NCBI RefSeq assembly: GCF_024502345.1
Contig: NZ_JALDNN010000001.1
Origin: Escherichia coli
Lineage (GTDB): Bacteria; Pseudomonadota; Gammaproteobacteria; Enterobacterales; Enterobacteriaceae
DNA length: 64,000 nt
Strand: one strand, 5' to 3'
Both the position numbers and the translations under genes were made by a program. The notes beneath the pieces were generated by a model. That model saw only the letters and a program-made list of their open reading frames with translations, did not search any database and was not told the DNA's origin. Shown one piece after another: positions 46,704 to 63,600 of this stretch (positions within the stretch are counted from its first letter, which is position 1; each line of letters opens with the position of its first letter).

Positions 46704-47165
46704 TTATTTCACTTCTTTAAAACCAGCGGCTTTCATCACCAGTTCCATTTGCGCCATAGTGATACCTTTTTTGGCATCTTCAGCAGAAACGTTGATTCCT
46801 GAAATACCCTGCAGGGCTTTAAAATCCACTTTTTCCATATCGATAGTCACGTTTTCCTGCGCGTAGGTATCGGTATAGGTTAATTTTTCTTCAACACCCG
46901 CGATGTTTTTGTATTTGGCGCTTAACGGCTCAAGTGTCTTGGCAGCGTCTTCTTTGGTGGTTGCACCAATAGAGGCAAATTGAATTTTGGTTTCTGAAGA
47001 TTGCTTAAGCACCTTGTCACCTTTGTAGACATAGGTAATGGCAATTTCAGTGCCGTTCAGATTGGCGCTGAATTTCTTCGATTCTTCTTTGTCACCGCAG
47101 CCAGCAAGAGAGAAAACCAGAACAGATGCAACAACAAGGGAAAACAGCTTATTGAAAGCCTTCAT
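46704..47165 (-). CDS. yehR: DUF1307-family lipoprotein
   Basis: ORF track 157 aa. Trimmed to MKAFNKLFSLVVASVLVFSLAGC (lipobox), giving 153 aa. Confidence 0.88.
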   Translation of the reverse strand: MKAFNKLFSLVVASVLVFSLAGCGDKEESKKFSANLNGTEIAITYVYKGDKVLKQSSETKIQFASIGATTKEDAAKTLEPLSAKYKNIAGVEEKLTYTDTYAQENVTIDMEKVDFKALQGISGINVSAEDAKKGITMAQMELVMKAAGFKEVK

Positions 47166-47289
47166 GTAAAACTCCATTTTATTTAATCAAGGAACTGGTG
47201 ACTCTCACCAGGGGCTATATAGGATATGCCTAATACCGTGGTGTGAGCAGTCCGGAACTGGAGTAGAACTCTTAGTAAAAAGCACTATT

Positions 47290-49293
47290 TCATCCTTGTT
47301 GCTGAAGCATGGGGAATAATTGTTCGCACAGCAAAACGCAGTTATTCATTGCTTCTACCCGTGCCTCGCTTTCTGTATTACGAAATTGTCCCAATACATG
47401 TGCCAGCCGATAAAAAACCACCGCGGTGAGGTCATTCGCCAGCAACTCTGCCTGACCAATAGCACTCTGTTCCTGATAGCGCCAGCCGTTATGGAGCAGT
47501 TGAATAAGTAATGCCTGGCAGCGCATCAGCAACTGATGAGCAGTAGACGGCACAGGCAGAACGCTGACAGAAGGTAGTGATGCCACCACAGGCGCAGTTT
47601 CTGCGTCCAGCGCCCAGGCACGAGTCTTTGTCATCATTACCTGTGGTTCCAGTGTCAATTGCCCATCAACAAAACTGACAAAGCCAGAAACCAGACACAC
47701 GGGGTCGTCTGTTTGTTGCAAAAGCGCCGCCATGCGTTCAATGGCATAAGGCGCGCTGGCTGAGGCTGGCAGTGATAACGTCAGCAGATTATCTTCACCT
47801 TCGCCGCTGATTACCTGCGCATCCAGCGTCTGGCGGCTGCTATCCCAACCGAGCGAAATACACTCAGCGACCGGCAGAATAAATAAGTTATCGACCTGAT
47901 TAAGAGGCCGTATGCAGGAGGGGGGACGCTGGCGTAAATATTCCCGCAAAGCCACAATGCCCGGCTGGCGTAACGGCGCGCTCAACATTTGCCAGGCATC
48001 AGGCGACAGCGGCACAACGCTGCTTAAGCGGTTGCGGGTAGCTAACAGCAGCTCGCCATCGGCACTGCGTTTTGCTGCTTGTGAAACAATTTGCCCACCC
48101 GCCAGTGCGCCAGCCTGAAAACTAAACAGCCGACGCGTAGCTGCCGGTGAGTTTTCCTGTTCACTTCGCGGCCAACTGCGCGAAAGGTGCAAAATACTGC
48201 CGGTGTCGGGATCGGTAAACCAGATGCGTAAACCATAATGCTCAATATCCTGCCAGCAACGCATACCTAAAGACACCAGCCGCAGATGATCAAGCTTTGC
48301 TTCTCCGGCAATGCCAGAGCCAACGACCGTGCGCCACGGCACAGGAGGAACTTCACCAACACTGTCGCGCCGCGCCATCTCTTGTGCGCAATTTAATCGA
48401 CTGTTTAATGCCGCAAGCTGACGTAAGCATTCTCCGGCATGATAGTGGCTGGCGCGGGCGTGGAAGGCATCAACGCTGGCGCGCAGTTGCCGTAGCGATT
48501 CACTCACCCATCGCCAGTTGCAGCGTTCCGCTGCTTGCTGCGCGCGGCTGAAAGCGGCCTCGTAGTGAATAAGCGGCTGGCTGATGCCGCCCAGCCATAA
48601 TGCCTGGCTTAGTTGCTGAACATATTGACGACACGTTTTGCCTTCTTCGCTGGCAAACAGATCGTCAGATGATGTGACGTGTTCGCTGCGCATCTGCCAG
48701 ATTAAATGAGTCAATTCCGGTTGCTGCGCTTTTGCCTGGACAAAGGCCTGTACTGCCAGTACGACATGTTCGCAAAGTGTGCCTTCAATACAATCACAAC
48801 GGGCGAAACGAATGCTGCTACGGGAATAAAAACGCACATCGCTCATCGGTAAGCGGGCAGAGGGAATTTCGCCCGGCGTACAGAACAACTCAATGGTGAT
48901 GCCTTTAGCGACCAGCGCCTGCGCGCGTTTGCGGGTGGCATCGGGCAGGGTAGCCAGTTCTTCCAGCCAGATTGCCGGATCCCACTCTTCTTCTTTTTCT
49001 GTGGGCTGGACGGTGGCACAAAGTCGTTGATAACTTAACACCAGCATCACGCGATGACGGCACATGCCGCTGGCCCCGCAGCTGCACTGAGCCTCTTTCA
49101 GTGCCTGGCCGTTCGCCAGCTGGGTACGGACACCGTCACTGAAGGTGGCGATTAAAGCGCCGTTCTCATGGCTGATCTCCGGGACGTTGCCATTTTCCAG
49201 TTCCTTAAGACTGCGCTTAACAAAACCGGCATTGCTTAACGCTGTCAGGGCCTGCGGTGTCAGTTCTAATAATTCCGGACGTAGTGAATTCAT
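47290..49293 (-). CDS. yehQ: SWIM zinc-finger protein of the yeh cassette
   Basis: Start set at MNSLRPELLELTP, whose ATG overlaps the yehP stop (ATGA); this gives 667 aa. Two CxCx5CxH motifs (CSCGASGMCRH; CDCIEGTLCEH). Confidence 0.8.
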   Translation of the reverse strand: MNSLRPELLELTPQALTALSNAGFVKRSLKELENGNVPEISHENGALIATFSDGVRTQLANGQALKEAQCSCGASGMCRHRVMLVLSYQRLCATVQPTEKEEEWDPAIWLEELATLPDATRKRAQALVAKGITIELFCTPGEIPSARLPMSDVRFYSRSSIRFARCDCIEGTLCEHVVLAVQAFVQAKAQQPELTHLIWQMRSEHVTSSDDLFASEEGKTCRQYVQQLSQALWLGGISQPLIHYEAAFSRAQQAAERCNWRWVSESLRQLRASVDAFHARASHYHAGECLRQLAALNSRLNCAQEMARRDSVGEVPPVPWRTVVGSGIAGEAKLDHLRLVSLGMRCWQDIEHYGLRIWFTDPDTGSILHLSRSWPRSEQENSPAATRRLFSFQAGALAGGQIVSQAAKRSADGELLLATRNRLSSVVPLSPDAWQMLSAPLRQPGIVALREYLRQRPPSCIRPLNQVDNLFILPVAECISLGWDSSRQTLDAQVISGEGEDNLLTLSLPASASAPYAIERMAALLQQTDDPVCLVSGFVSFVDGQLTLEPQVMMTKTRAWALDAETAPVVASLPSVSVLPVPSTAHQLLMRCQALLIQLLHNGWRYQEQSAIGQAELLANDLTAVVFYRLAHVLGQFRNTESEARVEAMNNCVLLCEQLFPMLQQQG

Positions 49294-50426
49294 GACTGAA
49301 GATTCTCCGCAAGCCATGATGCCAGTTCGCCCGGTGTCATGGCGGCTATTTGTGCGCCGACATTAACCAGCGCCTGGGCCGTATCGCGGTCATAGCAAGG
49401 CGTTGCTGTGCTATCGAGCGCCGCCAGTCCCAGCACTTTGATGCCGCTCTGGACACACTTTTTCACCTGATGCGTCAGCAATGATGATGAACCCCCTTCG
49501 TAAAAATCGCTCACGAGGATAATGACGCTTTTTGCTGGTTGTTCAATAAGTTGCCGACCATATTCCACGGCACTGGCGATATTGGTCCCGCCGCCCAACT
49601 GTACTTTCATTAATAACTCTACCGGATCGGCAACGTCTGCCGTGAGATCAACGACGCTTGTGTCAAACGCCACCAGATGGGTACGAATGCCGGGTAACTG
49701 CCACAAACAGGCCGCCATCACCGCAGAGTGGATCACCGAGTCCACCATCGATCCGCTTTGATCAACCAGTAAGACCAGTTGCCATTGTTCACTGTGGCGT
49801 TTAATGCGGCTGTTAAAGCGGGGGGATTCGATATACAACTTGCCGTGTTGCGGGTGCCAGTGTTGCAGGTTGGCGCGCAGAGTACTTTTGAAATCAAAGT
49901 TTCGCGCCAGTGGAATAAATGAGCGGCGACGGCGATCGCGGACACCAGAAAAAGCCTGACGAACTTCCTTTGCCAGTCGAGCCATAATTTCTTCAACAAC
50001 CTGGCGCACTATCCGGCGGGCGGCAGCCAGTACTTCGGGGTTCATCAGATGTTTGGTGTGCAAAACGGCGCGTAGCAGACTTTCAGAAGGCTGCATACGT
50101 TCCAGCACGTCGAGATTCGTCACCACATCTTCAATGCCGTAGCGCAGTACGGCATCGCTTTCCAGCCGCTCAATCACCTGTTGCGGAAACAGCGTGTGAA
50201 TACTGTTGATCCACTCAGGGGTGGTGAGATTTGAGCTACCTAATCCACCGGAACGTTCACCACGCTGGAGCCGTTCAGGATCGCGCCCATACAGCCACTC
50301 CAGCGCGTGGTCTATCTGCCGGGCGTTGTCATCCAGCCCACAAAGCGTCGTTTCTGCCGCTTCGCCAAGAATTAATCGCCAGCGTTGTAGCTCACGGGTG
50401 GTCAGAAGATCGTTCAGTTCAGACAT
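49290..50426 (-). CDS. yehP: VWA-domain protein of the yeh cassette
   Basis: ORF track extends to 50654. Trimmed to MSELNDLLTTRELQRW, giving 378 aa. MIDAS motif LLVDQSGSM. The start overlaps the yehM stop by 8 nt. Confidence 0.88.
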   Translation of the reverse strand: MSELNDLLTTRELQRWRLILGEAAETTLCGLDDNARQIDHALEWLYGRDPERLQRGERSGGLGSSNLTTPEWINSIHTLFPQQVIERLESDAVLRYGIEDVVTNLDVLERMQPSESLLRAVLHTKHLMNPEVLAAARRIVRQVVEEIMARLAKEVRQAFSGVRDRRRRSFIPLARNFDFKSTLRANLQHWHPQHGKLYIESPRFNSRIKRHSEQWQLVLLVDQSGSMVDSVIHSAVMAACLWQLPGIRTHLVAFDTSVVDLTADVADPVELLMKVQLGGGTNIASAVEYGRQLIEQPAKSVIILVSDFYEGGSSSLLTHQVKKCVQSGIKVLGLAALDSTATPCYDRDTAQALVNVGAQIAAMTPGELASWLAENLQS

Positions 50427-52698
50427 GGAAAACTCCCCAGTTTTGCAGCGATGCCAGTGCCTGCTGTTCGAGTTGTTGATGATGTGCAATGGCTTGTGGT
50501 GGACAATGCAACGGCATTTGCAGCGCCGAAACGGGAAGTTGCGCCAGTTGATAATGCTCAAGCACCTGATGCGCCAGCGTCCCGCGTTCTCGTGGTGGTA
50601 GCCAGGCCATCGCCGCGCGTAAATCGGGCAGGGCATTGATAAAATTGGCATCACTCAGTTGATTTAAATGACTGCTGAAACCGGCGATAAATGCCGGCTG
50701 ACAGGCCAGTTGATGGCGGGCCAGCGCCAGCAAACCGTGCAGCGCTTCGCCGGATTGTGCCGGGGATAACTGCGCCAGCATCGTCAGCGCCGCTTCGGCA
50801 CTAGCGTTGGGATGTTCCAGACGCATCAGTGCGCCAAGAGCCGCGCCGCGATCCAGCGCCGGGGCATGGATTGCCTGACTGCGTCGCTCCAGTAAGGCTA
50901 CCGCCGCAGAAAGAGAAACGCCGGGTAAATTAACGCCGCTATATAGATCGCGCAGGATATGGCAAAGCGCCTGCCAGCTATGCATGTGAGCGTGAAACTC
51001 CTTTTCATCTGGTCTGCCGTTAGATTCACACAGCCACAGCGTGCGATCGATAGCCGCGCATAACGTCGTTTGTAATATCTGCGCGCCTTGCATACCGCTA
51101 ATTTCATCCAGCCGCCATAAGGCATATAGCACTTCCAGCGCCTGGCCCATTTCGGCAAATTGATTTTCCTGGGCGATTAATAATGTGAGTTGCTCCAGTA
51201 ATTGTTGACTGAAGGACGCCAGACCCGCTAACGCCGCCTGGCTAAGACATGTGGTGATACTGCCGATTCCACCCGCGTCCAGCATATCGGTTTCTAATTT
51301 ATGGCGTGCGGCTTCCTGGAGTGTGGCACCAAAGCAGGCGGCCTCAATCAATGCCGCATGCTGGCTAAGCGGGCGGGTTAATTTCCAGCGTTCTTCACCG
51401 TTGCCTGCAAGTGTCAGTGTGCTTCCCTGCTGGCGTACAATCCCTGGGATCTCCAGTATTGCCAGCCGATGTAACACCTGACTTTGCGCTAGTCCATTGG
51501 GGTTAAAGCGATTTAAGGTAAGCTCCGCCGGAAGAGAGATTGCGGTACGTTCCAGTTCGCAGGTGACATCTTTTGGCAGAGGCGGTTGTGGCGTAGAAGG
51601 GGCAAGTTTACCGAATCCGTCACCCGCTAATGTGTCTATCAACGTTAGCAGAATCGGATCGGTATCGGGATGAATAACGCCGCGATAGCTCCATGGCAAC
51701 GGCGCATTCAGGGATTCTTTAATCAGCGAGCCTGCTAAGGCATCCAGCCAGTCAGTGCGTAACGGTAGTGTATGACCGCGCAACTGTGCCAGCGCCATCG
51801 CATGCAGATGAGCGGCAGCCATATCCGCGGTCGAAGCAGGCAAGTGGTGTTGGCGCAAACGGGTAAGAACCGTTTTTAGCAGTTGTTCTCCCGCCTGCTG
51901 TAAGCCCCACTGCCAGCACCAGCTTTGCCAGACCGGGGCAGGCATTCCTGAAAGGTATCCTGCCAGCACATCAAGGCGCTTTTCACTGTAGGGTGTGAGA
52001 TAACAACCTGTAACGGCATCTGCCAGCGAGGGCAATTCTGGCTTGTTAATGTCCTGCGGACATTCGCGCCACATTTTTGCCAGTGCCGGAGCGTGCCAGC
52101 CACCGCAGACGACTAACACGTCGCCATTGTTTTGCTGCATCGCCCATGCAATCCAGCGGGCCATGAAGGCTTCGCGCTGACGATTGAGAGCATCTCCGGG
52201 GGAATCGCCCCGCAGTTGTGCAAAATAGTGCGCCAGCGCAGAGGGTAATGCAGTTTGCTGGCTTTCATCTTCGAATAAGTGATCCCACAGGGTATCGCTG
52301 TTATCCATGCGGGTGGCACGCAGCAGTAAGGTCTGGCTTTCATCTTGCGTATCAGGCGAATCGTTCTCTTCTTCACTCTGCGCCCAGCAAGGCAAATCGA
52401 TGAAGTAAGTTTATGCCTGAATACGACGTGCGGCTTGTAGCGCCTGCCACTCCGGCGAAAATTCAGCAAATGGCGTCCAGGCACCACGCCCGGGGGCCGC
52501 ACCGTCCTGATACTGGCAATAACTGTAAATAGCTACCGGAAGCTGGTGGGCTAAAAACAGTTCGTCTACCCGGTCATTAAAATCAGCCGGGCCTTCAATC
52601 AACACGTATCGTGGCCGCTGGCTTTCGATTAATGATTTGACCAGCCGGGCGCAGGCCGGGCTATGATGCCGGATGCCGACAATTAACGGCTCGCTCAT
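50419..52698 (-). pseudogene. yehM: yehM interrupted by an in-frame TAA at codon 96
   Basis: A single frame runs from the ATG at 52698 (MSEPLIVGIRHHSPACARL) to the TGA at 50419, 760 codons, matching the remembered 759-aa YehM. The codon at 52411-52413 (plus tta, minus TAA) is a stop: ...AARRIQA*TYFIDLPCWAQSEEE. The ORF track splits it into 52411..52866 and 50419..52395. Confidence 0.8.
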
Positions 52699-52708
52699 GC
52701 ATCTTTCC

Positions 52709-53797
52709 TCACGGCAGGCGGTGGCGGGCTTGATAATAAGCCTGCCAGTGAGCTTCTTTATGTGTGGCGACACGCTGTTCGAAGTAACGGCGCAGACGAG
52801 CGCGATCTTCTTCGTTATCTTTGACGATGGTTCCGGCAATACAGTCCACCAGATCGGCTGGCTCACCTGCGCGATTCGCTAAAAACCAGGCGCGGACGCC
52901 CACAGCGTGGGCCACGTTCACGGCTTCAGCGGTGGACATAATCGCTGTTAGTGTATCCATTGACGTTTTCTTTTCGCCGTTGGCACGCAGATCGCGGAAG
53001 GTGCGGACCAGTAACTCCAGTACCGCGTCAGGCACTTTATGCGGAATACCGCTATGGGCCAGCAAACGCGCCGAAGCACTGGCGACAAGCTCCAGCTCCT
53101 GGGCGAAATCCATAATCGGAAAGACAGTTTCAAAATCGAAGCGACGCTTTAGCGCAGCACTCATTTCATTGACGCCGCGATCGCGGGTATTGGCAGTGGC
53201 AATAATATTAAAGCCTTCTCGCGCATAGAGCTGACTGGCTTCACCAGTGAGTTCCGGCACCGTCATCACCCTGTCAGAAAGCATACCTAACAGACAGTCT
53301 TGCACTTCCAGCGGTGTACGCGTTATCTCTTCAAAACGGACGATTTTGCCGTCGCGCATTCCCTGGTAAAGCGGGGCAGGGACCAGCGCTTCCGTTGATG
53401 GACCATGATTGATAAGCAGGGCGTAGTTCCAGCCGTACTTGATTTGATCTTCGGTAGTAGATGCGCCGCCCTGGATGGTTAACCCGGCATCGCCGCTAAT
53501 AGAGGTTGCCAGTAATTCAGACAGGAGAGATTTTGCGGTGCCAGGTTCCCCCACCAACATCAAACCGCGTCCGGTGGCAAGAGTGACTAACATACGTTCG
53601 ACAGCGGAGGGACTAATCACCACTTTACGGCTAATATTTTGCGCGCTATCGCCAAGGATAAAAGCACGGGCCGCAGGCAAACTTAACTGCCAACCGGGCG
53701 GGCAAGGTGCGTTATCATTTTGTTTTAATTTTGCCAGTTCATCGGCGTATAACACAGCAGCAGGCGGACGCTGCAGATGATTATTCTGCGGTGACAT
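52709..53797 (-). CDS. yehL: MoxR-like AAA+ ATPase of the yeh cassette
   Basis: ORF track 384 aa. Trimmed to MSPQNNHLQRPPAAVLYADEL, giving 362 aa, with aggga as SD. Walker A GEPGTAKS. IIATANTRDRGVNEMSAALKRRF is typical of MoxR/AAA_5. Confidence 0.9.
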   Translation of the reverse strand: MSPQNNHLQRPPAAVLYADELAKLKQNDNAPCPPGWQLSLPAARAFILGDSAQNISRKVVISPSAVERMLVTLATGRGLMLVGEPGTAKSLLSELLATSISGDAGLTIQGGASTTEDQIKYGWNYALLINHGPSTEALVPAPLYQGMRDGKIVRFEEITRTPLEVQDCLLGMLSDRVMTVPELTGEASQLYAREGFNIIATANTRDRGVNEMSAALKRRFDFETVFPIMDFAQELELVASASARLLAHSGIPHKVPDAVLELLVRTFRDLRANGEKKTSMDTLTAIMSTAEAVNVAHAVGVRAWFLANRAGEPADLVDCIAGTIVKDNEEDRARLRRYFEQRVATHKEAHWQAYYQARHRLP

Positions 53798-53905
53798 ATA
53801 TTCATCCCTGAAATGTATTAATGAAATAAACGATATTTTACGCGCAATAAATGTTTGGCGCATTAGTTGTTTGAGCGAAAAATATCTGGAAAGCAGATCA
53901 CAGTA

Positions 53906-53991
53906 AATAAAAAAACCTGCTGGTGAGGCAGGTTCTTTTATTTACTATTTTCAGGCCTAACACCACAGCCTGTGCAACATCGTGTTCCAAC
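53906..53991 (-). ncRNA. orzP: Orz-type antitoxin sRNA (orzP-like), predicted
   Basis: Minus-strand promoter TTGCAA(54021-54026)-17 nt-TATAAT(53998-54003). The predicted 5' end coincides with an 18-nt seed (53974-53991) complementary to the zor leader at 54140-54157. Terminator hairpin 53914-53934 followed by a U-run. Length about 86 nt. Confidence 0.6.
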
Positions 53992-53997
53992 GAACGA

Positions 53998-54048
53998 ATT
54001 ATAACCACGGCTGGACCCCGTTGCAATTAAGATAATGAGATTTATAAT
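53998..54048. promoter_or_regulatory. Divergent orz/zor promoters sharing a palindromic -35 (copy 1)
   Basis: TTGCAA (54021-54026) is its own reverse complement. TATAAT lies 16 nt to the right on the plus strand (54043-54048) and 17 nt to the left on the minus strand (53998-54003). Confidence 0.6.
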
Positions 54049-54229
54049 CCTGACTGTTGGGACGTTGCGCCGGATCGAACCTATTTCAAGTCCTGGCTAC
54101 CGGACGGGGGGTGCTGCAGGTAGTGCCCTGATCCGGAGTGCAACATCGTGGTCCAACATACGTAAACCAGTATCGACAGGCAGTGTAAGGGTAAGGTGCT
54201 GGTGTTGCGCTCCTTAATAAGGAGAGCGG

Positions 54230-54319
54230 ATGGACTCGCTGACACAAAAGTTAACCGTGCTCATTGCTGTACTGGAGCTATTAGTGGCTCTGTTACGGTT
54301 GATTGATTTGTTGAAGTAA
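54230..54319 (+). CDS. zorP: Type I toxin, ZorO/ZorP family (29 aa)
   Basis: Hand translation gives MDSLTQKLTVLIAVLELLVALLRLIDLLK-TAA, with SD aaggag 7 nt upstream. One residue differs from copy 2. Hydrophobic helix typical of type I toxins. Predicted leader about 175 nt. Confidence 0.8.
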   Translation: MDSLTQKLTVLIAVLELLVALLRLIDLLK

Positions 54320-54340
54320 CGGGCAAATTGAAACGCATCT

Positions 54341-54370
54341 AAGGGGGAAAACCGCTTCCCCCTTTAATAA
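54341..54370 (+). terminator. zor copy 1 terminator-like hairpin
   Basis: aaggggga-aaaccgct-tccccctt followed by taataaaat. Confidence 0.4.
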
Positions 54371-54515
54371 AATGATTACTGTTTTTATTAATTCATCATA
54401 TAACTCATTTTTATTTATAAATTCATCGATTTTATATTCAACGCACCATTTGACCGGGATGTGAATATTTATGTTGGGCTATTGGCAAAAAATATCTGGA
54501 AAGTAGATCGCAGAA

Positions 54516-54599
54516 AATAAAAAAACCTGCTGGTGAGGCAGGTTCTTTTATTTACTACAGTGACGCTAACTTGCTGATTGTGCAACATTTCGTACCAAC
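54516..54599 (-). ncRNA. orzO: Orz-type antitoxin sRNA (orzO-like), predicted
   Basis: Minus-strand promoter TTGCAA(54629-54634)-17 nt-TATAAT(54606-54611). 18-nt seed 54582-54599 is complementary (17 Watson-Crick pairs plus 1 G.U) to the zor leader at 54748-54765. Terminator hairpin 54524-54544 followed by a U-run. Confidence 0.6.
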
Positions 54600-54605
54600 G
54601 AATAA

Positions 54606-54656
54606 ATTATATCCATATCCACACTCCATTGCAATTCAGTGAGTGAGATTTATAAT
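54606..54656. promoter_or_regulatory. Divergent orz/zor promoters sharing a palindromic -35 (copy 2)
   Basis: TTGCAA 54629-54634. Plus-strand TATAAT at 54651-54656 (16-nt spacer). Minus-strand TATAAT at 54606-54611 (17-nt spacer). Confidence 0.6.
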
Positions 54657-54837
54657 CCTGCCCGTTGGGAGGTTGTGCCGGATCGGACCAATTTTAAGTC
54701 CTGGCTGCCGGACGGGTGGTGCCGCAGGCGGTGCCCTGATCCGGAGAGCAACGTTTCGTACCAACATACGTAAACCAGTATCAACAGGCAGTGTAAGGGT
54801 AAGGTGCTGGTGTTGCGCTCCTTAATAAGGAGAGCGG

Positions 54838-54927
54838 ATGGACACGCTGACACAAAAGTTAACCGTGCTCATTGCCGTACTGGAGTTATTAGTGGCTCTG
54901 TTACGGTTGATTGATTTGTTGAAGTAA
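54838..54927 (+). CDS. zorO: Type I toxin ZorO-like (29 aa)
   Basis: Hand translation gives MDTLTQKLTVLIAVLELLVALLRLIDLLK-TAA, with SD aaggag. Matches the ZorO peptide of E. coli O157:H7 as I remember it. Confidence 0.8.
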   Translation: MDTLTQKLTVLIAVLELLVALLRLIDLLK

Positions 54928-54948
54928 CGGGCAAATTGAAACGCATCT

Positions 54949-54975
54949 AAGGGGGAATACCGTTTCCCCCTTTAA
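54949..54975 (+). terminator. zor copy 2 terminator-like hairpin
   Basis: aaggggga-ataccgtt-tccccctt followed by taa. Confidence 0.4.
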
Positions 54976-54981
54976 GAAAGC

Positions 54982-55036
54982 TATACTCGTCATACTTCAA
55001 GTTGCATGTGCTGCGACTTTAATTATCTAGAGTATA
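54982..55036. repeat. Mini-ERIC (ERIC termini without the core)
   Basis: tatactcgtcatacttcaagttgcatgtgctgcg + actttaattatctagagtata. The left 34 nt are identical to the left end of the full ERIC at 23437. Abuts the yehK stop codon (55037). Confidence 0.75.
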
Positions 55037-55354
55037 TTATTCTATTTCTTGGTTGAATATATTCTGTAGTTCACGATTAAAAATTGCTATTACAGTTTCA
55101 GGTGATTCACCTCGTAATTTCCGCTCATCAATACACTCATCTCTTATATAAATCAACGCATCATTTATTAGCGGGTCAGCATCTTCTCGATCACGTTGAT
55201 GAAATGTTGGATGTAGCCGGAATCGCTCCAGTCGATAGACGGAACCTGTAAATAATTCAGAGCATTTATGGATCTCAAGTCTGAAGGAAAACGGATCTTC
55301 AGGTACAGGGACCTCATAATCGTAAATAGCAACTAGCTCTTTTTGCACGATCAT
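55037..55354 (-). CDS. yehK: Small uncharacterised protein of the yeh cassette
   Basis: 105-aa ORF with no motif I recognise. AT-rich (about 37-38% GC in two sampled 60-nt lines). Confidence 0.75.
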   Translation of the reverse strand: MIVQKELVAIYDYEVPVPEDPFSFRLEIHKCSELFTGSVYRLERFRLHPTFHQRDREDADPLINDALIYIRDECIDERKLRGESPETVIAIFNRELQNIFNQEIE

Positions 55355-55414
55355 CGCTTTCCCCGCTGGTAAGTCGTGTAGATAACGGGCAGTCGCATCA
55401 CTGCCCGCTGTGTT

Positions 55415-57622
55415 TTAATGGAAAATGACGTCAGGTGCGCTTAACGCCTCACTCAAATCAAACACATCAAGTTCGGCAAAAGTGACGGATTTATTGTCAC
55501 GGTACACTCGAAGAGAACGGAAGCTCATTAGCGCTTTGCTATCAACATTGTAGTGGTTAAAACCGGGTGAAAACTTAAGGACCAGCCGGTACTCGCCCAG
55601 GTCATAGACAAATGCATCCTCATAGCCTGACTCCCAGCCTTTGTATCGCATTCCCATAAGCTGCCCAACGGTAGCGGATTTACCTTCCCAGCGAGTCAGG
55701 CTGTTACTGGTTGACTCGTCAGGTGTGAGCAGCACCGTGCACCGCGCCAACTGGCGAAAAGGCGGCATAATTTCGTAATCGGCAAAAAGCTGTGCAAATT
55801 CACTGCGCATTTCTACTGTCATTTCTAACGGGTGGGCAATGCCAATCAGAGCGTCCGCAGGCAGGTCAATTGGCTCATCTTGCGCATTGCAGAACTCCCC
55901 CTCTGCGGCCACACGAAAGGCGTTGAGTAAACAACGCGGTTCATTTGCCGGATAAGCCCCCCATATTAATCGCTGGGTAACCAGACGGGTAAAGGGATGA
56001 TTAACAAACAGAGAATGAAAATCTGCCAGCGACCAGCGTCGGGTGGTACGTAGGGCCGTTTCAAGACGCGGGAGCAGGTTTTTGCTCACCTGAGTGGCAT
56101 CTTTTTTTAGCCCTTTTAGTCGGGCCAGTGCCTCGGGCGCTTTCAGTTGATCGTCATCGGCGCGCAACCGGGGAACGCTTTTCTGGCGAACGTTTTGCTG
56201 ATCAAAGATAACCGGGTTGAGGTTTTCATCGAAGCGAACGGTAAACTGCCGGGGACCAAAATCAAAACTCAACGCCTGCGGATCATCAAGGCCCAGGGTT
56301 GGGACTAATCTGTCCGCTAGCTCTTCCTGGCTTAGCCCGCGATTTTCTGCGACCACCTGAAGAAATTCCGCCGCGTTATCACGTAAGGGGCGGGATTTCG
56401 CCCGTTGCGATATATGATGCAGCTGTATCAGCGCCATATCATTATTCATCAGGGTAAGGATGTTCAGGCCACTGACAGCACGGGCAGATTTGCCTTCTTG
56501 TGGCCAGCCGAGGATCTGTGTCGTTAGATCCCGTGCCGTGCTTTCGTCACCAAAGAGACTTAACGCCAGAAATGCCCAGTTGTCTTTTACGGGGGCACCA
56601 GCTTGTTGCCACGCAGTGAAGAGATCCCAGGCAAAAGCTGCCAGCGTTTGTGGCTGGCAGAACGTTTTCAGTTGTTCCAGCCCGCTATAAAAACGTCCCC
56701 CCTGGGTAAAGCGCAGCATTTCGCCGATAATTTCCAGAGCGTCATCGGTAACAGGTTGATTATTAGTGATAAGGCGCGGCCTGGACCACATTTGCGGATG
56801 CCAGAAATCAGGGGCTTTTGGAATGCGTGCCGGGTAAATCTCTATTGGACTCTGTTTAAGTAATTGTTCCAGGGCAGGCCATAGATCTGTACGCTGCCAA
56901 CGATTGGCTACAGTTTGTAGCAATTCGCCATGCCCATGTTCGTAAAGTAAACGCAGGGCAAGTAATGCAGCTTCGCTTTTATCGCTAGATTTGGTGAAGA
57001 CAAGAGGGATAAGTGCAGTAGCCGTATGTTCCGGCCATTGTAAAATCCACTGGCGAGCCAGATTACGCTGGCCCGCAAAACGCTGCCAGCAGCTTTCCTC
57101 TGCCAGAGAGAGATGCTTACGCAGTCGGAGATCGAATTCGTTATAGGTTTCTGAGCGATAACCATAGCCATAATCCTCGTCCTGATACTGCAATGTCACT
57201 ACCAGAGGATCACTCTCATAACACCGCGCAATAAACTGGCGTGCAATCACCACCTCAGTCGCATATTCCAGCCCCTCTTGTTGGACGATTTCGTCGAGCA
57301 ACTGTTGGCTGTCATTTTGCGCGATACAGGCTAGCGCCGCCATTGTCCGGGGCGGGATTGAGGGTTTGTGTTCGCCGATCAAGTTGATGGCCTGCGTGAT
57401 GGCGGACTGCCACTCCAGTGAAAAATTTTCATAACGCCAGACAATGTTTTTTTTCTTCTCAGCTTTTTGTAGCAATTCATCACCCAGTGTCTGAATGATG
57501 CTTTCAGTGATAACAGGCACTGGTTCGCCCGGCCAATTGCGATGGCTGAGTGGTGTTTTACCATTTTTATATTTCAGTTCCAGTTGGGCGTTATCAGCCA
57601 GCCACGGTAATTCCTTGTCCAT
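55415..57622 (-). CDS. yehI: DUF4132-like protein, paralog of YehH/MolR with the central region missing
   Basis: 735-aa ORF. N-terminal 180 aa and C-terminal about 550 aa align with YehH residues about 110-295 and about 697-1264. The YehH 296-696 equivalent is absent (junction ...SLAEESCWQRFAGQRNLARQWILQWPEH). I remember K-12 YehI as 1210 aa. Confidence 0.8.
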   Translation of the reverse strand: MDKELPWLADNAQLELKYKNGKTPLSHRNWPGEPVPVITESIIQTLGDELLQKAEKKKNIVWRYENFSLEWQSAITQAINLIGEHKPSIPPRTMAALACIAQNDSQQLLDEIVQQEGLEYATEVVIARQFIARCYESDPLVVTLQYQDEDYGYGYRSETYNEFDLRLRKHLSLAEESCWQRFAGQRNLARQWILQWPEHTATALIPLVFTKSSDKSEAALLALRLLYEHGHGELLQTVANRWQRTDLWPALEQLLKQSPIEIYPARIPKAPDFWHPQMWSRPRLITNNQPVTDDALEIIGEMLRFTQGGRFYSGLEQLKTFCQPQTLAAFAWDLFTAWQQAGAPVKDNWAFLALSLFGDESTARDLTTQILGWPQEGKSARAVSGLNILTLMNNDMALIQLHHISQRAKSRPLRDNAAEFLQVVAENRGLSQEELADRLVPTLGLDDPQALSFDFGPRQFTVRFDENLNPVIFDQQNVRQKSVPRLRADDDQLKAPEALARLKGLKKDATQVSKNLLPRLETALRTTRRWSLADFHSLFVNHPFTRLVTQRLIWGAYPANEPRCLLNAFRVAAEGEFCNAQDEPIDLPADALIGIAHPLEMTVEMRSEFAQLFADYEIMPPFRQLARCTVLLTPDESTSNSLTRWEGKSATVGQLMGMRYKGWESGYEDAFVYDLGEYRLVLKFSPGFNHYNVDSKALMSFRSLRVYRDNKSVTFAELDVFDLSEALSAPDVIFH

Positions 57623-57631
57623 GCTCTTTCC

Positions 57632-60600
57632 TTATTCAAACAGGGCTTCAATATCGTTAATTAGCTCGCTGGCGGTGATGGCATCGAGTACGGAGAGCTG
57701 CGCTTCCTGTGTTGAATTACTCCCCCAGCCATAGCTTTCCGCTTTGCCTTCCCATAGCCACAGCTTGCTTAAGAGCTGCTCAGCGCTAAGTTCGGCTGGT
57801 GACATACCCACTGCAAAGCCTTCATCGATTTCCATGATTAACGACCAGCGGCCCAGAGGTTTGATCATCCAGCCGATCCAGCCTCCATCCTGTGGTTCGC
57901 CCTTTATCCAGCCTTTATTCGCCAGCCCCATTACCCGACCGCTCGGGCATTTTCTGCTTGCCCAGCGGGTCAGTTCGCTGGCATTGCGCTCGGTTTCTGT
58001 CAGGGCGTAACTGTTACGGTCGAGCTGGCGGAACGGCGGTAGCAGTTCGTAGTCGGCAAAAAGCTGCCCAAATGCGGCGGCATCCGTCGGTGATATTTCC
58101 AGAACGTGAGGAATACCAACAGAGATATCGCCTTCCGGCAGGGTGAAAAGATCATCGTCAGCGGTGCTGTAGCTGTTATCTTCCGCTACGCGAAAGCAAG
58201 CCAGTAGCTGGTTTTCGGCGCTATAAACACCCCAAATCAGACGGCGGGTTAAGTGGCGAACCAACGGATGCTCAACCAGGAAGAGCTGGAAGTTTTCCGG
58301 CGACCAGCGGCGGCGCAGGCACATGGCGGATTCCAGCCTTGCTACCTGCTGGGCGGCGACGGTACGCGCATCTTTTTTCAGCAATTTGTAGCGGTTAACC
58401 GCATCGTTCGCCTGTGATTCATCATCGCTTTTATTGGGTTTAGGTAAGTCTTTCAGGCGGCTGCCGGAAACATCACGCACAAACGGTTTTAAGGTTTCAT
58501 CAAAGCTGACGGTGAACTGGCGTGGGCCAAAATCCAGCAGCAACGAACCGTTATCATCCAGACCGAGATCCGGTGCTAACCGATCTTCAAGCTCCGCCAC
58601 TGTCAGTTCGCGACTTTCGGCAATGTCGGCAATTTTCTCTTTCGCCCGCTCCTGTAATGCTTTGAATTTCAGTTTCTGGGCAATGCCGTTAAGCTGCATC
58701 AGGGCGATATCACTACCGATAGCGGCGAGAATATCCAACCCAACGGTGGCGCGTTTATGCTGAGATTCGCCAGGCCAGGCGCGGATTAATGGCGTCAGTT
58801 TGCGGGCGGTGTCATCGTTGCCGAGAACACCTAACGCAATGAACGCCCAGCTTTCTTTCGATGGCGCGCCCGCAGTCAGCCAGGCGGTAAACAGATCCCA
58901 GGCAAATTCAGCCAGTGAGTCGGCGGTACAGGCATCTTTCACCTGCAATAATCCCGGATACAGAGCCTCTTCCTGAGGGAAGCGGAGCATTTCACCGAGG
59001 TGCTGGAGTGCGCTATCGGGCAGTGATTGGGCGTTTGCTTTTAATACCGGGCGCGTCCAGAGCGATGGCTGATAAAAGGCCGGAAGAGTGGGGATTTTTG
59101 TCGGGTGATTATCTAAGGGATCGAGCGCAAGCAGAGCGTTCACCGCGTCTGTTACTTCCGGCTGGTTATAACGCCGGGCGATTTCTTGCAGTAATGGCTG
59201 ATGACCATTTTCGGTAAGCATACGCAAGGCAGCGCGGGCGTTATCCTGTGCTTCACCGGCTTTGCCGAGCGCCGCAGGCAGCAGGCCGGTAAGGGCATGT
59301 TCCGGGTATTTCAGCAGCCAGGTGCGGGCGTCTTGTCGTAGGGTTTTGAGTTTGTTGAAGGCGCGGGCGACGGCAGGAGCTAGCTCACTCGCTGCGAAGT
59401 AATTCGTGATGGGCAAGGCTTCCTGCGGATAGCGTGTAATTGAGTTAACTAAACCAGGTAAACCTTTGAGTCCAAAATGTAACATGGCGTATTCGGTATC
59501 GGTATGTGGAGATAGAGTAAGGGCATTCCATGCTTTTACTGCTTTCTCCAGCGGCAATGTTGTCAAAATCCCCAAATGCCAATAATGCCCGGTAGGTGAA
59601 TGAAACACCTTAAATTCACTTATTAAGGTTGAATAATCTTCATTTAGCCATGCCTCAACTACCGCTTCGGGAGCTTTAATATATGTACCAGCGATCCGTC
59701 GTTGAAAACCCATCCTTGCCAACAGGTTGGTAGTACTTTCTTCATGGCTAACCGTGATGTGTTGTGAATACCAGATATATTTCGCCAAAAGTTGATTACT
59801 GATTTCTTCTGTCATATAACAGATTGGCTCAATGCCTAATGGCGCTAAATCCAGCACCGGAATCGGCGATTTTTTCTTTTTCGAAAGCCATGGTGGGGAG
59901 ACTACTATGGCAGGCAGTAGATCGGCGCAGGCATGGTTTGAGGGCTGTGTCAGTTGTTGCTGGCATGATTTCAGTACGGCAACTGCGGGTGTCGAGAGCC
60001 AGGGAAGGACCTGTTCTGCCAGTGCTGGTTGTGAGATAAGCATTGTCATTAGCATAATGCGCCAACTGTTCTCTTCTTTTTGCCCAAGAAGTTCCGTCAG
60101 TGCCGCCATTGCTGCATGTGGGAACGCAGCAATGGCTTTCGTCATCCGATCGTGACAGCGTTTAGTTTGCCCGGCTACACGTATAAGCAGTGTCAATGCG
60201 ACCGGATGATTGATATGACGCAACACATCGGCGCAGTAGTCACTTGCGGCATAGGGAGCAAATCGGGGCAGGGCTGCAACACCTTGCTCCTGTAATACGG
60301 TGGCTGACCATATCGCACCACAATAGTAATCATCAAAAATGGCATATGGCTCGTGATATTTTTCTAATGAGGCAAGAATGTGCTCATCAGTCGCCACTAT
60401 TTTTAACCACTCAAGCGAGGGTAATTTTTTTTGCCCCAGTAGACGCTGGGCAATTTCATGTGCAATTTCTGGTTTTTCGGGTAATAACAAAGCAATTAAT
60501 GGTTGCCGCCATTCTGGAATATGTGGAATTGCGGCAATAAGTTTTTGTGCACATTTTTGCCAGAGAGACTCTTCCGCCAGTGATAAATGTTTACGTAGGC

Positions 60601-61426
60601 GTAATTCAAATCTGGAATATTGCTCCAAGTAGTTAGGTGCAATGCCAGACGGCAGAATAATAATGACATTATTCGCATAATCCCATTCAATATCAATCTG
60701 TTGAAGGTGTATTATTACATCAGTAGCATATGCCAGACCGCCTTCCTGGACGATCTGATCCATAACATCCTCACGCACTTTATATCTTGTGCATTTCATT
60801 TCAAGTGCCGTGAGTACAGCCATTACTGGTGATGGTAACTGTGTTGTTTTCAGGCCGTCGATCTGACTGATCGCCTGGGCGACGGTGTTTTGCCATTCTA
60901 AAGAACAGGCGCTGAAGTCAAATGTGGCTGTTTTATTATCCCGTTGCGACACACTACAGGCTAAGCGACGTAAGTGGGTCAATTTGTCTGCTTGCTGAAC
61001 AGGAACTTCGGGAAAGCGGCGATGGCTTAACGTGGTGTGTACAACTTCGGGCGGAAAAACGACAGCAATATCTTTCGCCAGCCACGGTAAAACAGCATCT
61101 GTATTTTTGTCAGCCGCACGGGTTTCTGCTACGAAAGAGGGTTGTTCCTGAATAATGGTGGATAAGTCCGCTACCTTGAGAGAGCCCGTTACCGTTTGGG
61201 AAGGTTGCAAAGAATTATCCTTCGCTTGCTCCATATATCCCTTCTTCACCTTCTCCGCAATCAGCTTCAGTTCCGCTTTTGCCGCCGCTGCAGCATCTGC
61301 AAAGCTTTTTACCTGACTTTGCCCGTTAGTGCCGACTTTACCCCAGTTGATATGCAGCTCGTTGTCTTGCTGCTCCACCGCCCAGAATTTATGTGATTTT
61401 TCGTCCTGATAGATATAACTCTTCAT
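57632..61426 (-). CDS. molR: WGR-domain + DUF4132-like giant protein (MolR), apparently intact
   Basis: 1264-aa uninterrupted ORF. N-terminal WGR-like module MKSYIYQDEKSHKFWAVEQQDNELHINWGKVGTNGQSQVKSF...KVKKGY. Synteny with K-12 yehH/molR, which I remember as a fragmented pseudogene in K-12. Confidence 0.85.
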   Translation of the reverse strand: MKSYIYQDEKSHKFWAVEQQDNELHINWGKVGTNGQSQVKSFADAAAAAKAELKLIAEKVKKGYMEQAKDNSLQPSQTVTGSLKVADLSTIIQEQPSFVAETRAADKNTDAVLPWLAKDIAVVFPPEVVHTTLSHRRFPEVPVQQADKLTHLRRLACSVSQRDNKTATFDFSACSLEWQNTVAQAISQIDGLKTTQLPSPVMAVLTALEMKCTRYKVREDVMDQIVQEGGLAYATDVIIHLQQIDIEWDYANNVIIILPSGIAPNYLEQYSRFELRLRKHLSLAEESLWQKCAQKLIAAIPHIPEWRQPLIALLLPEKPEIAHEIAQRLLGQKKLPSLEWLKIVATDEHILASLEKYHEPYAIFDDYYCGAIWSATVLQEQGVAALPRFAPYAASDYCADVLRHINHPVALTLLIRVAGQTKRCHDRMTKAIAAFPHAAMAALTELLGQKEENSWRIMLMTMLISQPALAEQVLPWLSTPAVAVLKSCQQQLTQPSNHACADLLPAIVVSPPWLSKKKKSPIPVLDLAPLGIEPICYMTEEISNQLLAKYIWYSQHITVSHEESTTNLLARMGFQRRIAGTYIKAPEAVVEAWLNEDYSTLISEFKVFHSPTGHYWHLGILTTLPLEKAVKAWNALTLSPHTDTEYAMLHFGLKGLPGLVNSITRYPQEALPITNYFAASELAPAVARAFNKLKTLRQDARTWLLKYPEHALTGLLPAALGKAGEAQDNARAALRMLTENGHQPLLQEIARRYNQPEVTDAVNALLALDPLDNHPTKIPTLPAFYQPSLWTRPVLKANAQSLPDSALQHLGEMLRFPQEEALYPGLLQVKDACTADSLAEFAWDLFTAWLTAGAPSKESWAFIALGVLGNDDTARKLTPLIRAWPGESQHKRATVGLDILAAIGSDIALMQLNGIAQKLKFKALQERAKEKIADIAESRELTVAELEDRLAPDLGLDDNGSLLLDFGPRQFTVSFDETLKPFVRDVSGSRLKDLPKPNKSDDESQANDAVNRYKLLKKDARTVAAQQVARLESAMCLRRRWSPENFQLFLVEHPLVRHLTRRLIWGVYSAENQLLACFRVAEDNSYSTADDDLFTLPEGDISVGIPHVLEISPTDAAAFGQLFADYELLPPFRQLDRNSYALTETERNASELTRWASRKCPSGRVMGLANKGWIKGEPQDGGWIGWMIKPLGRWSLIMEIDEGFAVGMSPAELSAEQLLSKLWLWEGKAESYGWGSNSTQEAQLSVLDAITASELINDIEALFE

Positions 61427-61521
61427 CCGCGTTTCCTGTATTTATATCCAGTTATAAGCGGATGCTAGCAGTTAATGAAAAAAATTAAGAGCGTTGAACA
61501 AACAAGAAAACAACTTTAGGA

Positions 61522-61557
61522 ATTTATAAAGAAAAGGCGCTGTCGATGCAGCGCCTT
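61522..61557 (-). terminator. metG rho-independent terminator
   Basis: On the minus strand: AAGGCGCTG-catcga-CAGCGCCTT followed by TTCTTTAT. Confidence 0.8.
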
Positions 61558-61566
61558 GAAGGGGGA

Positions 61567-63600
61567 TTATTTCACCTGATGACCCGGTTTAGCACCAGCA
61601 TCCGGGCTTAGCAGGAAAATATCTTTCCCGCCAGGACCGGCAGCCATCACCATGCCTTCGGAGATACCGAAGCGCATTTTACGTGGTGCCAGGTTAGCCA
61701 CCATAATGGTGTGACGACCAATCAGTGCCTGCGGATCCGGGTAAGCAGAACGAATGCCGGAGAAGACATTACGCTTTTCGCCGCCGAGATCCAGCGTCAG
61801 GCGTAGCAGTTTGTCAGAACCTTCAACAAACTCTGCGTTTTCAATCAGCGCCACGCGCAGGTCAACTTTGGCGAAGTCGTCAAAGGTGATGGTTTCCTGA
61901 ATCGGATCATCTGCCAGCGGGCCAGTTACCGGCGCGGCAGCTGCTTTCACTTCTTCTTTAGACGCTTCCACCAGTGCTTCAACCTGCTTCATATCTATGC
62001 GGTTATACAGCGCCTTGAACGGATTCACTTTATGGCCCAGCAGCGGTTGCTGGATACCATCCCAGGTCAGTTCCGTATTAAGGAATGCTTCTGCGCGCTC
62101 GGTCAGTTTCGGCAGTACCGGCTTCAGGTAAGTCATCAGCACGCGGAACAGGTTTATGCCCATTGAGCAAATTGCCTGCAGGTCGGCATCGCGGCCTTCC
62201 TGTTTCGCTACCACCCACGGAGCCTGTTCATCGACATAGCGGTTAGCCAGATCAGCCAGCGCCATGATTTCGCGCACTGCTTTACCAAATTCGCGGCTTT
62301 CCCACGCTTCACCAATCACTTCAGCGGCATCAGTGAAGGTTCTGTACAACTGCGGGTCAGCCAGTTCGCTTGCCAGCACGCCGTCAAAACGCTTGTTGAT
62401 AAAGCCCGCGTTGCGGGAGGCCAGGTTAACCACTTTGTTCACGATATCGGCATTCACGCGCTGAACGAAATCTTCCAGGTTGAGATCGATATCATCAATG
62501 CGCGAAGAGAGTTTCGCAGTGTAGTAGTAACGCAGGCTGTCGGCGTCAAAATGATTCAGCCAGGTGCTGGCTTTAATAAAGGTACCGCGAGACTTAGACA
62601 TCTTCGCGCCGTTCACCGTCACATAGCCATGAACAAACAGGTTGGTCGGCTTGCGGAAGTTGCTGCCTTCCAGCATTGCTGGCCAGAACAGACTGTGGAA
62701 GTAAACAATATCTTTACCGATGAAGTGGTACAGCTCGGCGGTGGAGTCTTTCTTCCAGTATTCATCGAAGCTTACGCTGTCGCCGCGCTTGTCGCACAGA
62801 TTCTTGAAAGAACCCATATAGCCAATCGGCGCATCTAGCCAGACGTAGAAATATTTACCCGGCGCGTTCGGAATTTCAAAACCGAAGTACGGCGCGTCGC
62901 GGGAGATATCCCACTGTTGCAGGCCAGATTCAAACCACTCCTGCATTTTATTTGCCACCTGCTCCTGCAACGCACCGCTGCGGGTCCATGCCTGCAACAT
63001 TTCGCTGAAAGAGGGCAGATCAAAGAAGAAGTGTTCAGAATCACGCATTACCGGCGTAGCGCCAGAAACCACCGATTTCGGCTCGATCAATTCAGTCGGG
63101 CTGTAGGTCGCGCCGCAGACTTCGCAGTTATCGCCGTATTGATCCGGGGATTTACATTTCGGGCAGGTGCCTTTTACAAAACGGTCCGGCAGGAACATGC
63201 CTTTTTCCGGATCGTACAGCTGAGAGATGGTGCGGTTTTTAATAAAACCGTTTTCTTTCAGGCGAGAGTAGATAAGTTCTGACAACTGGCGGTTCTCTTC
63301 GCTGTGCGTCGAGTGATAGTTGTCATAGCTGATGTTAAAGCCTGCGAAATCAGTCTGATGCTCCTGACTCATTTCGCCAATCATCTGCTCCGGGGTGATA
63401 CCAAGCTGCTGAGCTTTCAGCATGATCGGTGTACCGTGGGCATCGTCGGCGCAGATGAAGTTGACCTCGTGGCCGCGCATTCGCTGGTAACGGACCCAGA
63501 CATCAGCCTGGATGTGCTCCAGCATATGGCCGAGGTGGATTGAGCCGTTAGCGTACGGCAGTGCGCACGTCACCAGAATTTTCTTCGCGACTTGAGTCAT
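61567..63600 (-). CDS. metG: Methionyl-tRNA synthetase
   Basis: ORF track 680 aa. Trimmed to [29 protein letters not shown] (HIGH motif), giving 677 aa. KMSKS present. Confidence 0.97.

Follow-up and report, generated by a model that had tools for sequence, protein, structure and literature searches.

A five-family MoxR-VWA gene cluster at the Escherichia coli yeh locus and its possible link to the DNA damage response

Gene content of the yeh locus

We analysed a 64,000-nucleotide (nt) stretch of the Escherichia coli chromosome (contig NZ_JALDNN010000001.1; hereafter the window), focusing on seven minus-strand genes, yehH (also called molR), yehI, yehK, yehL, yehM, yehP and yehQ, which include genes for a MoxR-type AAA+ ATPase and a VWA protein. 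The closest genome, NZ_CM136169.1, is 99.9% identical to the window, and bases 47000-61600 have a match in 5425 of the 5426 complete E. coli genomes searched. The closest genome is annotated in RefSeq with its genes in the order btsSR-yehS-yehR / yehQ-yehP-yehM-yehL / yehK-yehI-yehH / metG. Together with the coordinates, this order confirms the two minus-strand blocks, yehH-yehI-yehK and yehL-yehM-yehP-yehQ, that had been described in a first-pass annotation made from the sequence alone.

Domains were called with Pfam above curated cut-offs, and every assignment first proposed by eye (AAA_5/MoxR, VWA, SWIM, WGR and DUF4132) exceeded its cut-off. The gene yehL (52709-53797) encodes a 362-residue MoxR-type AAA+ ATPase of the YehL subfamily, with a single AAA_5-type AAA+ module (E=1e-33; 116.6 bits against a cut-off of 22) and a MoxR-like P-loop, the Walker A motif GEPGTAKS occupying residues 82-89. 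YehL is the name-giver of one of seven recognised MoxR subfamilies (PMC3893208). Its nearest solved sequences are the AAA domains of Midasin/Rea1, which are of the AAA_5 type (E=5e-10), and the MoxR entry 2r44. In Midasin, a eukaryotic remodeller that acts in ribosome assembly, six AAA modules work together with a metal-ion-dependent adhesion site (MIDAS) domain on a single giant polypeptide, whereas the yeh ATPase and VWA protein are separate and have extra partners.

The VWA protein is encoded by yehP (49290-50426; 378 residues) and is of the CoxE type (VWA_CoxE, E=7e-72, 242 bits), with the MIDAS motif DQSGS (DxSxS) at residue 222. Next to it, yehQ (47290-49293) encodes a 667-residue SWIM zinc-finger protein (E=7e-8) with two CxCx5CxH motifs at residues 70-80 and 166-176. 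The P-loop, the MIDAS motif and both YehQ knuckles are present in the translations as originally reported. The remaining gene of this block, yehM (50419-52698), is a DUF5682 gene and a pseudogene in this strain.

In the other block, yehH (57632-61426) is intact and encodes 1264 residues, comprising a WGR domain (residues 8-69; 61220-61405; E=8e-18), a HEAT-like solenoid and a DUF4132 domain (residues 988-1173; 57908-58465; E=7e-51). The match to Pfam WGR recalls PARP-type proteins, although the YehH motif reads WGK and no PARP catalytic domain is present. Its neighbour yehI (55415-57622) encodes a second DUF4132 protein, 735 residues long here against 1210 normally, with 37% identity to YehH over YehH residues 110-1204. 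The two had been thought to share a C-terminal module; the homology stands, but it spans nearly the full length of the proteins, and YehI is best read as a paralogue of YehH that lacks the WGR domain. Of the two products whose classification had been left open, YehM fell into DUF5682, whereas YehK (yehK, 55037-55354; 105 residues) belongs to no Pfam family and returned nothing in NCBIfam, PADLOC or PDB sequence searches. The PDB sequence search also gave nothing significant for YehQ, and an NCBIfam scan of all seven proteins produced only matches far below cut-off.

Junctions within the blocks are tight. A 10-nt gap separates yehL from yehM, yehM and yehP overlap by 8 nt (ATGTCTGA), yehP and yehQ share an ATGA overlap, and yehH and yehI lie 9 nt apart, all four exactly as first described. 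These overlaps and spacings are consistent with co-translation of the genes in the window.

Conservation of five protein families across phyla

We examined gene neighbourhoods in loci that were retrieved by similarity to YehM alone, one genome per species, and whose six-frame open reading frames (ORFs) were searched with the proteins of the window. Counts refer to 76 loci outside Escherichia, drawn from at least six phyla, and each denominator is the number of loci with room in the flank. A YehL homologue adjoins YehM in all 73 loci that could be scored and a YehP homologue in 72 of 72. YehQ homologues adjoin the VWA gene in 64 of 67 loci, 62 of 73 have a DUF4132 protein of 600 amino acids (aa) or more, and all five families are present together in 55 of 63. 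The usual arrangement is co-directional and reads [1-3 DUF4132]-AAA_5-DUF5682-VWA_CoxE-SWIM; it occurs in Gamma- and Betaproteobacteria, Myxococcota, Actinomycetota and Acidobacteriota, and the cluster is also found in Bacillota and others. The same gene set appears in independent annotations, namely those of a deltaproteobacterium (precomputed Pfam labels), Bacillus mycoides, Streptomyces and Sinorhizobium. In Sinorhizobium, where the cluster (L088) lies on a conjugative plasmid, the order is AAA-DUF5682-DUF4132-VWA-SWIM, the DUF4132 gene having moved between the DUF5682 and VWA genes.

Three proteins of about 1,120-1,180 residues in a 50%-identity library (P0349, P0379 and P0292) join DUF5682 and VWA_CoxE in one chain; unless they are frameshift artefacts of overlapping genes, these apparently natural fusions argue that YehM and YehP work in contact. 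DUF4132 proteins are about 1,200 residues long, number one to three paralogues per locus and also occur alone elsewhere in genomes. Flanking-ORF clustering across 81 loci yielded no further conserved neighbour family, only lineage-specific synteny, and YehK is confined to Escherichia and Shigella loci.

The first-pass annotation had taken all seven genes for a single multi-component machine and had called for a co-occurrence analysis beyond Enterobacteriaceae. In the 76-locus set the families do travel together in many phyla, and the association of ATPase, VWA, SWIM and DUF4132 proteins bears out the idea of one machine. A seven-gene unit does not stand, because YehK is restricted to Escherichia and Shigella and YehH and YehI are paralogues; the conserved unit is better described as five families, namely MoxR AAA+, DUF5682, CoxE-type VWA, SWIM and DUF4132. 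The locus itself is not new, its genes and domains having been annotated already and the YehL subfamily named in 2006. As far as the searched literature shows, what is new is the definition of the five families across phyla, the fold of DUF5682 described below and the bridge from yeh to the ddrTUVWX operon of Deinococcus.

Two variants of the locus are recorded here in passing. On a Hymenobacter plasmid (L087), a gene for a 1009-aa DUF5691 protein is followed by AAA, hypothetical, DUF5682 and VWA genes, with no separately annotated SWIM gene, and the cluster adjoins a PDDEXK nuclease and a recombinase. Some E. coli ST131 lineages (genome hits H54 and H55) carry three DUF4132 genes, which gives a locus of about 19.2 kb compared with 16 kb.

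Predicted fold and conserved pocket of YehM

A YehM sequence profile gave no significant match in the PDB to any member of the TIKI/TraB/EreA/ChaN superfamily. The fold assignment needed a structure model because sequence alone did not reveal it. In the AlphaFold2 model (predicted local distance difference test 84.8; predicted template-modelling score 0.80), the N-terminal ~240 residues are predicted to belong to the TIKI/TraB/EreA/ChaN hydrolase-fold superfamily, and the structural relatives include the bacterial toxins and effectors HopBA1, PMT and RRSP. The rest of the protein forms a helical arm of ~500 residues that resembles MIF4G or HEAT repeats. YehM therefore has its fold in common with TIKI, TraB, PrgY, EreA and ChaN, but its domain is fused to this long arm.

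To assess conservation we used 121 full-length sequences that each represent a separate cluster at 50% identity. Residues R10, H11, H12, E35, H51, E83, D101, D139, E143, R163, R175, E176 and H202 are conserved in 90-100% of them, with H11 at 93%, E35 at 95% and both G199 and H202 at 100%. The superfamily is defined by paired GX2H motifs and a conserved Glu; G8, the first glycine of the first GxxH in YehM, is conserved in just 64% of the representatives. The conserved polar residues look like an active site or a specific binding pocket. Candidate functions are peptidase activity (TIKI, RRSP), esterase activity (EreA) and ligand binding (ChaN), and sequence cannot distinguish among them. Relatives of YehM fall into ~1,500-2,300 clusters at 50% identity and are spread over many phyla.

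Links to the DNA damage response

Immediately upstream of yehH lies a LexA (SOS) box of the CTGT-N8-ACAG type, AACTGGATATAAATACAGGA (61434-61453, minus strand), with 8 nt between it and the yehH ATG. Scored with a position weight matrix made from known E. coli SOS boxes, this site reaches 23.3 bits, compared with 13.1 bits for the second-best site in the window. Only two sites in 1.64 Mb of loci reach at least 15 bits; each is found shortly upstream of a yehH homologue, that of E. coli in one case and that of Klebsiella in the other. The Klebsiella site (17.3 bits; AACTGGATAAAAACGCAGGA; positions 2282-2301 of locus L007, from a metagenome-assembled genome) is situated between metG and the yehH homologue. 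A 71-aa ORF directly follows the Klebsiella box, and the main ORF begins 339 nt downstream. In E. coli, molR is listed among the LexA-regulated genes with a known SOS box (PMC6590174). Actinobacterial-type boxes (TCGAAC-N4-GTTCGA, with up to 2 mismatches) were found inside coding regions only and were treated as chance occurrences.

A second link comes from Deinococcus. Its ddrTUVWX operon encodes, in order, a SWIM protein, a conserved protein, a MoxR protein, another conserved protein and a CoxE-like VWA protein; the operon (Deide_18730-18690) belongs to the radiation/desiccation response regulon and ranks among the most strongly radiation-induced genes. Radiation induction, IrrE/DdrO dependence and a radiation/desiccation response motif (RDRM) site are reported for it in several Deinococcus species (PMC4007540, PMC5552922). 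We found a copy in D. taeanensis through its DUF5682 gene, in the order SWIM-DUF5691-AAA_5-small ORF-DUF5682-VWA_CoxE, the assignment of these genes to ddrTUVWX resting on the published operon description. The small ORF encodes 78 aa of no known family. The D. taeanensis ATPase, DUF5682 and VWA proteins, which correspond to DdrV, DdrW and DdrX, are 41%, 28% and 33% identical to YehL, YehM and YehP, respectively, and BLASTP returned them at E=2e-77, 6e-36 and 9e-67. Upstream of the SWIM gene, at a distance of 20 nt, there is an exact match to the RDRM core TTATG-N7-CGTAA (TTATGTTTCTGGCGTAA; positions 4723-4739 of locus L084, on a plasmid); it is unique in the 19.5-kb locus and was seen in 0 of 200 shuffles.

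The yeh and ddrTUVWX operons have in common a MoxR AAA_5 ATPase, a DUF5682 protein, a CoxE-type VWA protein and a SWIM-domain protein encoded in one co-directional operon. They differ in that the Deinococcus operon begins with the SWIM gene, has DUF5691 in place of DUF4132 and is controlled by DdrO/IrrE and the RDRM rather than by LexA. D. radiodurans carries its WGR and DUF4132 genes elsewhere in the genome; their products, the WGR protein DR2173 and the DUF4132 protein DRA0166, count among the targets of DdrO and are induced by mitomycin C (PMC8533742). Parts of the system thus appear to be tied to DNA damage, in distant phyla, by LexA and DdrO, two repressors unrelated to each other. The SOS box of molR/yehH, the kinship with ddrTUVWX and the hydrolase-type fold of YehM had all been missed in the first-pass annotation.

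A damage-induced remodelling machine and its alternatives

Starting from the domain identities, the conserved synteny, the YehM fold, the SOS box and the homology to ddrTUVWX, we infer, at every mechanistic step, that the cluster may encode a DNA-damage-induced, ATP-driven MoxR-VWA remodelling or processing machine, a reading to which we assign a probability of about 0.4. Damage would raise the levels of machine parts, through derepression of LexA targets in E. coli or through cleavage of DdrO in Deinococcus. The WGR-DUF4132 scaffold and the SWIM protein would bind damaged DNA or damage-associated nucleoprotein. The MIDAS site of YehP would couple the client to a YehL hexamer, as in other MoxR-VWA pairs, and ATP hydrolysis would remodel or extract that client, with a further hydrolytic step supplied by YehM, which would probably act as a peptidase or esterase. 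The ddrTUVWX tie, the yehH SOS box and the hydrolase-type fold and pocket of YehM make this a concrete hypothesis that is testable in two model organisms. They also correct the 'molybdate regulator' label of molR, which is misleading. If the machine does act on damaged DNA or on trapped proteins, it would represent a new arm of the SOS and radiation responses.

A bolder form of the hypothesis, to which we give little credence, would make the yeh-type and ddrTUVWX-type clusters two versions of one ancient DNA-damage machine that is widespread in bacteria. In this form, a MoxR unfoldase, a VWA-MIDAS adaptor and a TIKI-fold peptidase (YehM/DdrW) would be directed to lesions by the WGR and SWIM readers, and proteins trapped on damaged DNA would be extracted or cleaved in a manner functionally analogous to DNA-protein-crosslink repair by the eukaryotic p97/Cdc48-SPRTN/Wss1 pathway. 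The YehH cassette (described below) and the number of paralogues would then set the targets.

Several observations weigh against a damage-response role. Damage control is documented in just two lineages. In E. coli the SOS box precedes yehH alone, the region upstream of yehL has no LexA-like site scoring 12 bits or more, and the 1.2-kb gap between yehL and yehK holds two toxin-antitoxin copies with their terminators. Clusters of Serratia and Betaproteobacteria have no LexA box of at least 15 bits, a survey that is incomplete in that many cluster starts lie beyond the fetched flank, and no convincingly placed LexA box was found in Actinomycetota. Both yehL and yehM have been reported to be repressed by H-NS. 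The correspondence with Deinococcus is also partial: YehQ and DdrT both have a SWIM domain but no full-length BLAST match, and DUF5691, which stands where E. coli has DUF4132, shows no detectable similarity to it by hhalign (probability 0.4%). Searches with the C-terminal part of DUF4132 gave no informative match among solved structures, and the catalytic activity of YehM is putative and unproven, ChaN of the same fold superfamily being a haem-binding protein and no enzyme. We know of no DNA-repair phenotype for any yeh gene. Literature searches on the yeh genes, DUF4132/DUF5682 and ddrTUVWX, which were spot-checked, found no functional study or biochemical role.

The locus is, moreover, often damaged. 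Lesions occur in this strain, in a Shigella locus (L050) and in molR of K-12, which is decayed, and transposon insertions are seen in ST131, one sublineage of which carries the blaCTX-M-15 transposon TnMB1860 inserted in the yeh region (PMC9334617). Such frequent damage speaks against strong selection for a repair function in E. coli.

The main rival, which we consider rather unlikely, is a nucleoside triphosphate-dependent conflict system directed against phages or other invaders. Here DUF4132 proteins would sense the invader, the MoxR-VWA pair would act as a switch and YehM would be a TIKI-like effector, with damage induction reporting phage attack or prophage induction. The conflict systems predicted by Kaur, Burroughs, Iyer and Aravind (2020) have MoxR-vWA pairs as their core, and such pairs also feature in a threat-sensing pathway studied in Actinomycetota (PMC13622651). 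The vWA-MoxR-VMAP systems of the 2020 study resemble the yeh cluster in joining this core to large, variable third components, and the DUF4132 front end is indeed variable, with differing paralogue numbers and a dimorphic YehH cassette. Frequent lesions and transposon insertions, repression of yehL and yehM by H-NS, and a YehM fold common to HopBA1, PMT and RRSP would also suit such a role.

The proteins themselves fit a conflict system less well. None of the seven matched any of 5027 PADLOC models (PADLOC-DB v2, E<=0.01), and Pfam detected no VMAP, effector-associated (EAD), TIR, caspase or nuclease domain in them; the match to the bpMoxR model, at 18.5 bits, is under its cut-off of 27. In a literature term search, none of the four papers found to mention DUF4132 dealt with vWA-MoxR-VMAP systems, and 'SWIM' is absent from the Kaur paper. 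Nor does the genomic distribution point to mobile defence. The locus occupies a single chromosomal site in 5425 of 5426 E. coli genomes, YehM homologues occur in 43 of 72,556 plasmid records (several of them chromosome-sized), a phage search gave one weak match, on a 14-kb phage contig, and no defence genes recur as conserved neighbours in ~80 loci. The earlier suggestion that the locus behaves like accessory or conflict DNA is accordingly weak, for the locus is core and almost absent from plasmids and phages. A conflict role is unproven and rather disfavoured, whereas the idea of a single machine holds. Were the cluster a defence system after all, its core status and fixed chromosomal position would be unusual.

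Less probable still is a general stress chaperone or remodeller that acts on a client other than DNA and is drifting towards loss in E. coli, the SOS box being a lineage-specific accident. To our knowledge, E. coli has only two MoxR ATPases, and the other, RavA, has a P-loop of the GxPGxAKS type, as does YehL. Like YehL and YehP, RavA-ViaA pairs a MoxR AAA+ ATPase with an adjacent VWA cofactor, and it acts on subunits of respiratory complexes; it differs in belonging to another MoxR subfamily, forming a two-gene operon under RpoS control and having no DUF5682, SWIM or DUF4132 partner (PMC3893208). A chaperone role of this kind would agree with the finding of damage-type operators in Enterobacteriaceae and Deinococcus only, with the common inactivating lesions and with silencing of the locus by H-NS. 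It sits less easily with the wiring of system parts to damage by two unrelated repressors, in Deinococcus at three separate loci, with core proteins that are well conserved across phyla and have an invariant pocket, and with a WGR domain of the kind common to PARP family proteins.

The weakest proposal, raised at the outset as the alternative to a conflict role and in our view very improbable, is a maturation chaperone for a metallo-enzyme or cofactor (for example molybdenum, to which the name molR points) in the style of CoxD-CoxE, NorQ-NorD and CbbQ-CbbO. YehP belongs to the CoxE VWA family and has a weak NCBIfam match to a putative cobaltochelatase, ChaN, the structural relative of the YehM domain, binds haem, and the combination of AAA+ and VWA proteins with a giant partner of ~140 kDa recalls the layout of chelatases. 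The same logic is expected of these pairs, in which the MIDAS would hold the client while the AAA+ ring remodels it, and every MoxR-VWA pair characterised so far serves to activate a particular enzyme complex (PMC3893208). However, the named pairs adjoin the genes of their client enzymes, whereas flank clustering found no client-enzyme or cofactor-biosynthesis gene conserved beside the yeh-type cluster (81 loci), molybdenum genes were unchanged alongside the WGR and DUF4132 genes in D. radiodurans (PMC8533742), and WGR and SWIM domains under LexA/DdrO regulation are ill-suited to a metabolic maturation role.

Lesions in yehM and yehI

In this strain yehM has a premature TAA at codon 96 (52411-52413), where the closest genome has CAA (a C-to-T change), and the gene is split into ORFs 52411-52866 and 50419-52395. 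A restart at the next in-frame start (52395) would still lose the pocket residues R10, H11, H12, E35, H51 and E83. The lesion in yehI is an in-frame deletion of 1425 bp (475 codons) whose junction (57079-57089) lies at imperfect 11-nt direct repeats, AACG[C/G]TGCCAG. Both lesions, as first described, were confirmed by comparison with the closest genome, which has neither. Because yehM stops at codon 96 and YehI loses 475 residues, the machine is probably non-functional in this strain.

These lesions had also been read as a mark of an accessory or conflict locus. That reading fails at least for the yehI deletion, the junction of which occurs in 0 of 5426 complete E. coli genomes; because it is also absent from the nearest genome, we regard it as a private accident of this strain. 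Neither lesion counts as evidence on the locus in general. The nearest genome, NZ_CM136169.1, otherwise 99.9% identical, has a 1-bp frameshift in yehI instead. Truncated forms are common in sequence collections.

Intergenic insert, repeats and variable cassette

Between yehL and yehK, where a single type I toxin-antitoxin pair had been described, there are two tandem zorO/orzO-type copies (53909-54927, both strands) that are 88% identical to each other. Each combines an Orz antisense RNA (53909-53984 and 54519-54592, minus strand; Rfam OrzO-P, 99.9 and 88.8 bits, above the gathering score) with a divergent 29-aa hydrophobic toxin ORF, MD[ST]LTQKLTVLIAVLELLVALLRLIDLLK (54230-54319 and 54838-54927, plus strand). 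This insert is no part of the machine. The 82 nt that follow yehK (54955-55036) are a dispersed repeat found at a median of 5, and up to 10, places per E. coli genome. Such a repeat is consistent with the ERIC/IRU remnant previously noted there, but some of these nucleotides may be part of the duplicated zor unit. A simple sigma-70 scan found the zor/orz promoters alone and no promoter-like site for yehL or yehH; upstream, an intrinsic terminator of metG (61534-61557, minus strand) separates that gene from the yehH promoter region.

The mosaic GC content noted at the start is real, at ~0.44-0.47 in the 5' half of yehH and the intergenic region versus 0.51-0.59 elsewhere. In the 5' half of yehH (window 59500-61500) the GC content is distinctly below that of both the 3' half and yehL-Q, with the shift falling near a variable cassette. 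That cassette (yehH residues ~530-675; 59400-59840) is dimorphic and sharply bounded in allele comparisons, with ~50% aa identity between the two main E. coli alleles and 90-98% in the flanks. A homologue search with YehH returned no diversity, being dominated by near-identical entries from E. coli, but it revealed these two allele classes. The version in the window is present in 3397 of 5426 genomes at a DNA identity of at least 95%, and the remainder gave no match (blastn 'distant' mode). Gene conversion from yehI was considered as the source of the cassette and rejected, the cassette being just 26% identical to YehI. A third YehH allele (P0123) diverges in residues 1-300 instead.

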